A stretch of DNA of 64,000 nucleotides from assembly GCF_003018115.1 (NCBI RefSeq), contig NZ_CP027457.1; one strand, given 5' to 3'. Each line of letters begins with the position of its first letter. Position 1 is the first letter of the stretch. The notes under the pieces were generated by a model that was given only the letters and a program-made list of their open reading frames with translations, was not told the origin of the DNA and did not search any database. Positions 18,255 through 19,568 of this stretch are shown piece by piece. The translations under genes and the position numbers were made by a program. The DNA comes from Escherichia coli. Lineage in GTDB: Bacteria; Pseudomonadota; Gammaproteobacteria; Enterobacterales; Enterobacteriaceae.

Positions 18255-19490
18255 TTTATAGTCCTTACTTTATAAAACTCACAGGAAGAGGAAATTACGT
18301 AAATACGGAATGTACAGAAACGCCGTACCACGGTATTAATAAAAGAGATAACCAGCAGCACAGACAACCTGATAAAACTATTTCGTATTACCTCATTACA
18401 GTAATAGGGTAATTATTCAGAATACAGTAAGACTCTCTTAAACTGAGGACCAGAACGAATTACAATAAAAAACACACCTCATATAATTGAGTTTAAGAAA
18501 GCACCATTCAATTACTTACAGGAAATAATCTGATCTTCACAAAAGTCAGCATTGAATAGCCACAGGCAACATCGCTATTAGTATTGTCGTACCATTAAGT
18601 AAAAACAGCGACTCTGCAGAGAGCAGCCTACAGATATTTAATCAGTAGTATAAAAGAATAATGACATACAGACCATACGCTACACACCATAAGAAGATTA
18701 TTTCATACAAAAAAGATAATATTTACCCATAAACTGTAACGGAGCTATAACGTACGAACTAAAGACAATATACTCTAATAGTGTGCTGGTACGTAACTAG
18801 TGTTAAATACAAACCAGACATACATTCAGTGGATTAACTTTCTCAATATTACGCTATGAGTGTAGTAACATAATTTACACATAACTAAACCCCATACACC
18901 ACCACACTGTAGCATATGGGGATAGACGCATTACGCACATACAGAATACTCAGCATAAAGAGGAGTGACATTACGATAAAAAGAGGTAAGTTATACCACA
19001 GATACCACCACACCCATTAATAATACTAATTAACCTTAATTATTCATGGTATATGAAACCATATGTAGTTCTCTGGGAACTAACTAACCCAACAAGAAAA
19101 ATAATCGCTATATAAAAACTTCAGTTAATACTCATTTGTTTTGTTGACTCAGCATATACTAAGTGACCAGTAATCAGGATAATCACACTTACATAACCTG
19201 TAAAAATGGATAAGAAGTATAATCTACTAACAGAATTCACCAGACAAGAGCTTACACCGAATTACAAATTATGTATTAATATCAAAACTGGCATATTTTA
19301 CAGATGCAATGAACATGCAATCCATCAGTTTAATGGAGGCAGTATGCACATCTATCCATGAATGGGATAGCACCAGGAGCACGAAATAATTAGATGCGGA
19401 TCACAAAAACATACCATTTTAATTGAAAAACAAAATAAACAAACAAATCAAAGTGTTACATAATTTTCTTTTGCCAGACATAGATAATAC

Positions 19491-19529
19491 CCCTGCTAAT
19501 TTTGCTAATGGTTAGCAAAATTAGCAGGG
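19491..19529. repeat. Perfect 18-bp inverted repeat with 3-nt spacer (CCCTGCTAATTTTGCTAA tgg TTAGCAAAATTAGCAGGG)
   Basis: Read directly; lies ~40 nt downstream of the stop of the 620-aa minus-strand ORF; no U-tract follows on the minus strand, so it is not a canonical intrinsic terminator. Confidence 0.85.
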
Positions 19530-19568
19530 TATATAAAGATTATTGACCCAAAACACACTCAGATGAAT

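Follow-up and report, generated by a model that had tools for sequence, protein, structure and literature searches.

Rolling-circle replicons, among them plasmids of the pMV158/pC194 type, phage phiX174 with its 30-bp origin and the CRESS-DNA viruses with their nonanucleotide, carry the double-strand origin just upstream of rep. Likewise, in the filamentous (Ff) phages the intergenic region upstream of gene II holds the origins. A 2025 preprint reads YagK/YfjJ-family proteins in tRNA-integrated, satellite-like elements of Escherichia coli as HUH rolling-circle initiators (10.1101/2025.09.15.676423).

Here we analyzed a 64,000 nt sequence from E. coli (contig NZ_CP027457.1; the window), in which a gene of this family is preceded by a stretch of 1314 bp (positions 18255–19568) bounded exactly by the start codon of the minus-strand ORF 17661–18254 and the stop codon of the minus-strand ORF 19569–21431. 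By itself the stretch is ordinary, a drifting AT-rich intergenic spacer of a horizontally acquired island; what is modestly new is a 24-nt cis-element, widely conserved and unannotated, that is found in ~29% of complete E. coli genomes.

Anatomy and gene content of the stretch

The region from 16296 to 24845 of the window is identical to E. coli 2014C-4135 (NZ_CP027310.1), and beyond it indels or rearrangements separate the two sequences. The genes are ordered as two zinc-ribbon genes, the "inovirus-type Gp2" (YagK/YfjJ-family) gene, the gap and a 620-aa hypothetical gene, beyond which lie, divergently, genes for an AlpA-type HTH protein, a DUF3987 (YfjI-like) protein and a tyrosine integrase. 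The host island is a P4-integrase/AlpA/DUF3987-type genomic island, and the stretch lies between backbone genes of this island, where the original prediction had placed it. The two flanking genes share the minus strand, which puts the stretch downstream (3′) of the 620-aa gene and upstream (5′) of the Gp2-like gene. The features of the region are as follows.

17661..18254, minus strand: YagK/YfjJ-family ("inovirus-type Gp2") gene, 197 aa, for a putative HUH rolling-circle Rep-like protein
18255..18630, minus strand: proximal leader of the Rep-like gene, better conserved than the distal half
18631..19017, minus strand: distal half of the Escherichia-type spacer, indel-rich and weakly conserved
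19041–19018, minus strand: conserved 24-nt motif AATTAAGGTTAATTAGTATTATTA, candidate Rep recognition/nick site and/or operator-promoter
19042..19490, no strand assigned: filler of the 620-aa-gene lineage, ~450 bp, no feature found; in 69/5426 E. coli genomes
19491..19529, minus strand: hairpin with a perfect 18-bp stem, 40 nt past the stop codon of the 620-aa gene
19569..21431, minus strand: 620-aa backbone gene (ORF), function unassigned; the stretch is 3′ of it

The stretch had been described as AT-rich, unusually long and devoid of ORFs of 60 aa or more, and all of this was borne out, with exact coordinates: its longest ORF has 51 aa, its G+C content is 33% overall (0.32–0.36 locally) vs. 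~0.50 in the flanks, and it is the longest run of the window without an ORF of at least 60 aa, the runner-up being 873 bp (31194–32066). The plus strand is rich in A and C, with an AT skew of +0.20 to +0.25 and a GC skew of −0.13 to −0.18. ORFs of at least 60 aa were also absent from 38–40% of composition-matched shuffles, so that their absence is the norm for non-coding AT-rich DNA, and the oddity of the stretch is its gene-free length, not the missing ORFs. Among the ~105 E. coli records listed, PGAP places no feature under the stretch, except for one 3-nt overlap with an otherwise unannotated pseudogene scrap, which accounts for a "phage terminase small subunit" label under one database match that we discarded. 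TRF found no tandem repeats or iterons in the stretch, only short two-copy repeats. The stretch is genuine non-coding DNA within a mobile E. coli island.

The original prediction had offered a non-coding RNA or a decayed gene as the possible content of the stretch, to be looked for by a covariance-model scan and by translated searches, and neither idea gained ground. Rfam scans by E-value (17000–22000 and 18150–19650) and a gathering-threshold scan of the whole window placed no family in the stretch; nothing came near threshold, the best match to Rfam 15 families scoring 22 bits vs. a threshold of 55, and the remainder were microRNA-type chance matches on a hairpin. RNAalifold on 10 alleles gave a covariation term of −0.02 kcal/mol, with double changes in 7 of 152 pairs, in an alignment of limited power, with alleles only 6–28% diverged. 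Folding of the single sequence did not clearly exceed that of shuffles, with z-scores of −0.83 for the sense strand and, from just 20 shuffles, −2.46 for the antisense (plus) strand. As for gene remnants, six-frame translations of the stretch had 0 matches to Pfam and PHROGs at E-values up to 1, a kind of search in which the discovery of a decayed known gene would have counted against the prediction; no remnant of a known gene is detectable. Small ORFs of the stretch vary in length, and none is kept in more than five of the nine other alleles. The enterohemorrhagic E. coli small RNA Esr41 was considered and rejected as a counterpart: it is a ~70 nt RNA with a poly-U tail, encoded between z1181 and z1182 in OI-43, elsewhere in its island, and the stretch holds no equivalent.

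The 620-aa protein had no match in Pfam, NCBIfam or PADLOC. It had been called an orphan, a status that it loses: alleles with 99% and 72% identity occur in many E. coli, and a 30%-identical homolog of 627 aa occupies the equivalent position in Citrobacter freundii (E-value 3e-81). The proposal that the stretch is regulatory DNA survives in part. Cis-acting or regulatory content is retained, most likely serving the YagK/YfjJ-like gene, whereas regulation of the 620-aa ORF has the wrong geometry, because the stretch is downstream of that ORF and can offer it just a 3′ hairpin. This hairpin (19491–19529) has 7 G-C pairs in its 18-bp stem, which is preserved by compensatory changes in three lineages; the tail that follows, GTATTATCTA, is loosely T-rich, and that of the C. 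freundii counterpart is not T-rich. It is a probable 3′-end or terminator-like element of the 620-aa gene that would end or stabilize its transcript. A non-coding RNA of a defense system that includes the 620-aa protein was rejected: PADLOC returned no match, the protein is not a reverse transcriptase and the stretch lies 3′ of its gene.

Distribution of the stretch and of its 24-nt motif

Comparisons with 5426 complete E. coli genomes revealed that the part adjoining the Gp2-like gene (query positions 1 to ~570–815) is present in 1582–1585 of them (~29%), whereas the entire stretch is found in just 69. An unannotated gap of 0.8–1.0 kb between yfjI and the Gp2-like gene also occurs in O121, UTI89, O157, ATCC 25922 and other strains; in O104:H4 and one more type, the neighbor of the gap is a gene of 610–620 aa. 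Identity to the window per 100 bp is 0.75–0.98 up to ~19024 and falls off sharply beyond 19025, with the O104-type allele as the exception. The stretch is, therefore, a composite with little functional content, whose Escherichia-specific leader of ~760 nt, present in ~29% of E. coli genomes, has never been annotated. The corresponding gaps of K-12 yfjJ and yagK measure only 152 and 271 bp.

At its 5′ edge, the shared block carries the 24-nt motif AATTAAGGTTAATTAGTATTATTA, which consists of an inverted repeat, AATTAA-GG-TTAATT, followed by TAGTATTAT, and is invariant in all the E. coli alleles of a 10-allele alignment. There is one copy in the window, with 0 expected by chance. In comparisons with C. 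freundii and Erwinia, AATTAAGGTTA[A/G]TTA[A/G]TATTATTA was the sole segment of the gap conserved between genera. We then surveyed the motif by scanning genomes with a protein profile for Rep-like genes and inspecting the sequence upstream; in all these comparisons together, it precedes the Rep-like gene, in the same orientation, in Citrobacter, Erwinia, Edaphovirga, Budvicia, Brenneria, Serratia, Lelliottia, Buttiauxella, Yersinia and Enterobacter, and likewise in E. albertii and C. gillenii. The motif is thus kept in at least 10 other genera although identity of the Rep-like protein is 32–58% (32–36% to that of the window in Brenneria, Serratia, Lelliottia, Buttiauxella, Yersinia, C. gillenii and Enterobacter), and across genera it is better conserved than the protein that it accompanies. 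The distance from motif to ATG is 150–270 nt in the other genera vs. 590–790 nt in Escherichia. A variant shorter by one nucleotide occurs in Atlantibacter, Mixta and Thorsellia, and looser relatives are found at yagK (GGATAGGTATTATATAATGG) and yfjJ (AGGTAATATATAGG) of K-12. In metagenomes, 81 contigs carry the motif and sufficient sequence beyond it; in 68 of these a Rep-like ORF follows in the same orientation, and ~10 of the 13 others, with unrelated flanks, are probably chance matches. The sequence of the motif is printed in no paper of the literature that we searched.

Folding of single-stranded DNA in 81-nt windows from six loci uncovered no conserved or stable hairpin around the motif (z-scores of −1.05 to +1.46), where secondary structure is limited to the short AATTAA-GG-TTAATT dyad; an origin of the CRESS-DNA stem-loop type was accordingly discarded. 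The motif is adjoined by GTGGTAT direct repeats (ATACCAC on the plus strand, at 18993–18999 and 19002–19008) and by short GTTAT direct repeats. It also contains an invariant −10-like hexamer, TATTAT, with a TG extension in one clade; a −35 element is not conserved, and a promoter scan of the stretch called no promoter at the motif. SELEX data assign a constitutive sigma-70 promoter (TTTAGA-16-TATAAT), with an H-NS mark, to the yagK-yagL spacer of K-12, and the yagK counterpart of the motif overlaps this promoter (PMC3946193). Conservation of the motif nevertheless includes bases beyond those that a sigma-70 promoter would constrain. An AlpA operator shared with int is weakly disfavored, since the motif has a single copy in the window at up to three mismatches and, hence, no second site near int or alpA.

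The spacer between the motif and the Rep-like gene behaves differently. From motif to ATG, the Escherichia alleles have a mean pairwise identity of 0.826, with indels up to 28% of the length, vs. 0.965 for codon positions 1 and 2 and 0.882 for position 3 of the adjacent Rep-like gene; by these values, the leader diverges at least as fast as third codon positions. Indel lengths do not keep to multiples of three. Divergence is uneven, with a mean pairwise identity of 0.30–0.73 and indels of 6, 8, 13, 18, 40 and ~100 nt in the distal half (18631–19017), and a mean pairwise identity of 0.76–0.92, near the level of synonymous sites (0.88 at third positions), in the proximal ~375 nt (18255–18630), whose better conservation makes an extra function possible there. 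Within this proximal part lie the ribosome-binding region, an imperfect inverted repeat (18387–18413) and a weak sigma-70-like match (18441..18412); the count of promoter-like sites in the stretch is no greater than in shuffles. Other genera show a clear hairpin (z-scores of −2.7 to −3.2) over the ribosome-binding site immediately ahead of the ATG; in E. coli it is weak. The sense strand of the Escherichia spacer has a conserved skew towards T and G; in the short spacers of other genera, A and C prevail.

The 197-aa protein encoded downstream has the motifs GLHIHFIGY (HUH) and LSYLAK (Y-x-x-K), with residues H87, H89, Y157 and K160 near-invariant among 26 homologs. It gives weak matches to PF23343 and PF11726, and some databases name its relatives "rolling circle replication-associated protein." An AlphaFold2 model (pLDDT 87) shows a fold that is compatible with HUH proteins, although not specific to them. 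Using tblastn, we found plasmid matches only on records of at least 35 kb, mostly Acinetobacter plasmids of ~110 kb at 22% identity, and no inovirus among the matches in the phage collection; in the collections searched, neither small rolling-circle plasmids nor ssDNA phages encode members of the family.

A possible origin, promoter or gene remnant

The anatomy of the stretch, its conservation pattern and the absence of a detectable gene or Rfam RNA family are established by these analyses, and we consider it likely that the stretch combines neutral filler with cis-acting DNA that serves the Rep-like gene as a control region or origin. The 24-nt site, which is co-inherited with the HUH Rep-like gene, would be the point at which an island protein acts on the DNA. 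The most likely actor would be the Rep-like protein itself, binding or nicking the site in the manner of an origin, and the site may overlap with, or double as, the operator and −10 region of the promoter of the Rep-like gene. The ~760 nt from the site to the start codon and the ~450 nt on its other side would be lineage-specific AT-rich filler in approximately neutral drift; they would act only as a long leader and probably as a silencing platform bound by H-NS, with which the low G+C content agrees and at which the H-NS mark at K-12 yagK hints indirectly. The binding partner of the motif, any nicking, the start of transcription and H-NS binding are inferred. Several observations count against this explanation: the motif forms no stable stem-loop in any genus, in contrast to many HUH origins, its −35 element is not conserved, the proximal ~375 nt are somewhat better conserved than the distal part, and the strong and conserved strand skew of the Escherichia spacer is not accounted for by neutral filler.

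A more specific proposal is that the motif and its flanks are a replication or transfer origin (dso- or oriT-like), nicked by the HUH protein after AlpA/Int-driven excision, upon which the island would be replicated by rolling circle or mobilized, with part of the spacer serving as unwinding or single-strand-origin region. The conserved HUH and Y-x-x-K motifs of the adjacent protein agree with it, as do the direct repeats beside the motif and a core that outdoes the protein in conservation, is tied strictly to the gene as regards both position and orientation, and is constrained at more bases than a sigma-70 promoter needs. The motif core, TAGTATTAT/TAATATTAT, also resembles the nonanucleotide nick sites of CRESS-DNA viruses, TAGTATTAC/TAATATTAC. 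However, many HUH origins are presented by a stem-loop, which the motif lacks; the collections searched hold no member of the protein family on a small rolling-circle plasmid or in an ssDNA phage, the HUH fold match is not specific, and the spacer is roughly neutral and wholly different between lineages, while its plus-strand folding z-score of about −2.5 comes from just 20 shuffles. Rolling-circle replication of such elements is predicted in the preprint (10.1101/2025.09.15.676423). On balance, we see this proposal as possible, if on the unlikely side, and its central element, that the motif is the nick or recognition site (rolling-circle or transfer origin) of YagK/YfjJ-family HUH proteins, as a tentative and rather unlikely assignment.

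The invariant TATTAT, its TG extension in one clade and the SELEX-assigned promoter at the yagK counterpart (PMC3946193) would fit a promoter at the motif, producing a regulatory 5′ leader of ~750 nt with attenuator hairpins, or a distinct non-coding RNA regulating the Rep-like gene, comparable to P4-type RNA immunity. There are sense-strand hairpins at 18890–18921 and near 18610–18650, other genera conserve a hairpin that masks the ribosome-binding site, and the excess of T over A and of G over C in the sense strand would be consistent with a transcription-associated mutation bias. We nonetheless hold such an RNA to be unlikely: it matches no Rfam family, its covariation is about zero and its sense-strand folding resembles that of shuffles, its distal half is full of indels and approximately neutral, and a leader of 150 nt suffices in other genera. 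Moreover, the 13-bp hairpin at 18890–18921 is dispensable, being deleted in the O157 and PD4 alleles, and that near 18620 has no adjacent T-run and was not called as a terminator. The sequence evidence on the motif points both ways: it may be an origin that is nicked, it may be an operator-promoter, or it may combine the two roles.

Finally, the long Escherichia spacer might be the unrecognizable wreck of one or more small genes, or of an inserted element, that once lay between the motif and the Rep-like gene. It is 400–600 nt longer than the spacers of other genera, neutral and laden with indels, and a precedent exists in a sister lineage (Rep 49–64% identical), where the equivalent interval of 900–1140 nt holds an Hha/YmoA-like ORF of ~110 aa. 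Five contigs have this ORF intact and seven have it with frameshifts or in fragments, so the interval is able to host and lose small genes. Nevertheless, tblastn of the Hha-like protein against nine E. coli-type gaps gave E-values of 0.4 or worse, blastn between the Escherichia and sister-lineage spacer classes gave no match, and the six-frame comparisons to Pfam and PHROGs were empty up to an E-value of 1. Additionally, no PGAP pseudogene falls in the spacer among the ~105 records listed and no long intact ORF is common to the 10 alleles compared, and we regard this origin of the spacer as quite unlikely.

Significance and comparison with known systems

Replication and mobilization of excised CP4-57-like islands have so far been predicted from gene content alone, and if the motif were the recognition site of the YagK/YfjJ HUH proteins, it would provide a concrete handle on both processes. 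Should the origin reading be true, the "cryptic" P4-integrase/AlpA/YfjI islands, which are very common in E. coli and further Enterobacterales, would gain a defined cis-acting origin; these islands, some with virulence or defense cargo, would then be autonomously replicating or mobilizable after excision rather than inert remnants.

The stretch resembles the origins of rolling-circle replicons in having a short, conserved, AT-rich site upstream of a small HUH/Y-x-x-K gene, co-inherited with it and adjoined by direct repeats. Unlike those origins, its site has no stem-loop and belongs to an integrated island rather than to a small plasmid or virus; additionally, the Rep-like family was not found in autonomous replicons of the collections searched, and in Escherichia the site is ~760 nt away from the gene. 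With the Ff phages it shares a long non-coding region right before a gene annotated as "inovirus-type Gp2" or G2P-like. Conversely, it lacks a series of strong hairpins, the island has no other filamentous-phage genes, and no relative of the 197-aa protein was detected among the inoviruses of the phage collection.

Closer parallels are found within E. coli. The cryptic prophages CP4-6 (yagK) and CP4-57 (yfjJ) of K-12 have the same family of downstream protein and a related upstream element, but their gaps are much shorter, the 24-nt motif is not present as such, and an E. coli-wide nucleotide search with the stretch yielded no K-12-type match among the matches listed. Although the upstream non-coding region and its motif do not feature in the accessible part of the account of the satellite-like, tRNA-integrated elements, the latter have, as does the island next to the stretch, a tyrosine integrase, AlpA and an HUH Rep-like protein (10.1101/2025.09.15.676423).

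Putative control region and neighbours of the Rep-like gene

The sequence preceding the YagK/YfjJ-family gene (window 17661-18254, minus strand), which encodes a putative HUH Rep-like protein, can fold into a hairpin that sequesters its Shine-Dalgarno sequence:

Window 18255-18300, and the 40 nt preceding the Rep-like ATG in loci L016, L018, L028 and L030: Shine-Dalgarno-sequestering hairpin

The stem sequences vary by genus (UUCCUUUG/CAAAGGAA, CUUCCU/AGGAAG and UUCCUUC/GAGAGGAA), and the hairpin is formed weakly in the E. coli alleles. The occurrence of different stems in different genera suggests that the Rep-like gene is under translational control.

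Between the Rep-like gene and the conserved 24-nt motif found upstream of it, a sister lineage of this gene has an ORF of ca. 110 aa that resembles Hha/YmoA. This ORF is intact in five metagenome loci (L044, L047, L061, L092 and L133) and broken in seven others (L048, L052, L055, L057, L071, L112 and L115), with decay at several stages across the sister-lineage loci.

Directly downstream of the Rep-like gene, O104:H4, O121, O157 and LH50-c carry a gene for a 786-aa protein that comprises a PrimPol and an SF2 helicase (NCBIfam), whereas the window contains two zinc-ribbon/DUF7828 genes at the same position:

ca. 922-3282 in L002, L003, L005 and L010, minus strand: 786-aa protein gene, annotated as "TOTE conflict system archaeo-eukaryotic primase domain"

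Surroundings of the island

Base identity of the window to E. coli 2014C-4135 is confined to positions 16296-24845; beyond these limits (1-16295 and 24846-64000) this genome aligns in separate pieces, and it covers 91% of positions 8000-32000 in three pieces. This piecewise match indicates that the window derives from a related strain, one that differs by indels or rearrangements in the surroundings of the island.

Several genomes of the O169:H41 type share the second-longest run without an ORF of at least 60 aa (31194-32066, 873 bp) at 100% identity, and part of the equivalent stretch is covered there by a "hypothetical protein" in the PGAP annotation. Separately, in an Rfam scan Ysr251 (Yersinia sRNA 251, antisense type) was matched over its full length at 26219-26412, plus strand, ca. 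1.5 kb past the integrase gene; the score is 188 bits, where the threshold is 100. Three further gathering-level matches are expected core-genome elements:

62604-63026, minus strand: cspA thermoregulator
51844-51922, plus strand: naRNA4 (CssrE)
45922-45964, plus strand: ES036 (CssrF)

The family of the 620-aa protein

On the other side of the ORF-free spacer (18255-19568) lies a gene that the original prediction had considered an orphan:

Window 19569-21431, minus strand (family also in L018, 1573-3456): 620-aa ORF, uncharacterised family

That description does not hold, since there are homologues in E. coli (alleles with 99% and 72% identity) and in Citrobacter freundii (627 aa, 30% identical). 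Searches against Pfam, NCBIfam and PADLOC yielded no match, and the ORF is a member of a conserved, wholly uncharacterised family. Its position is constant, between a divergent AlpA-DUF3987 gene pair and the spacer preceding the Rep-like gene, an arrangement that replaces the usual alpA-yfjI order, with both genes on the same strand.
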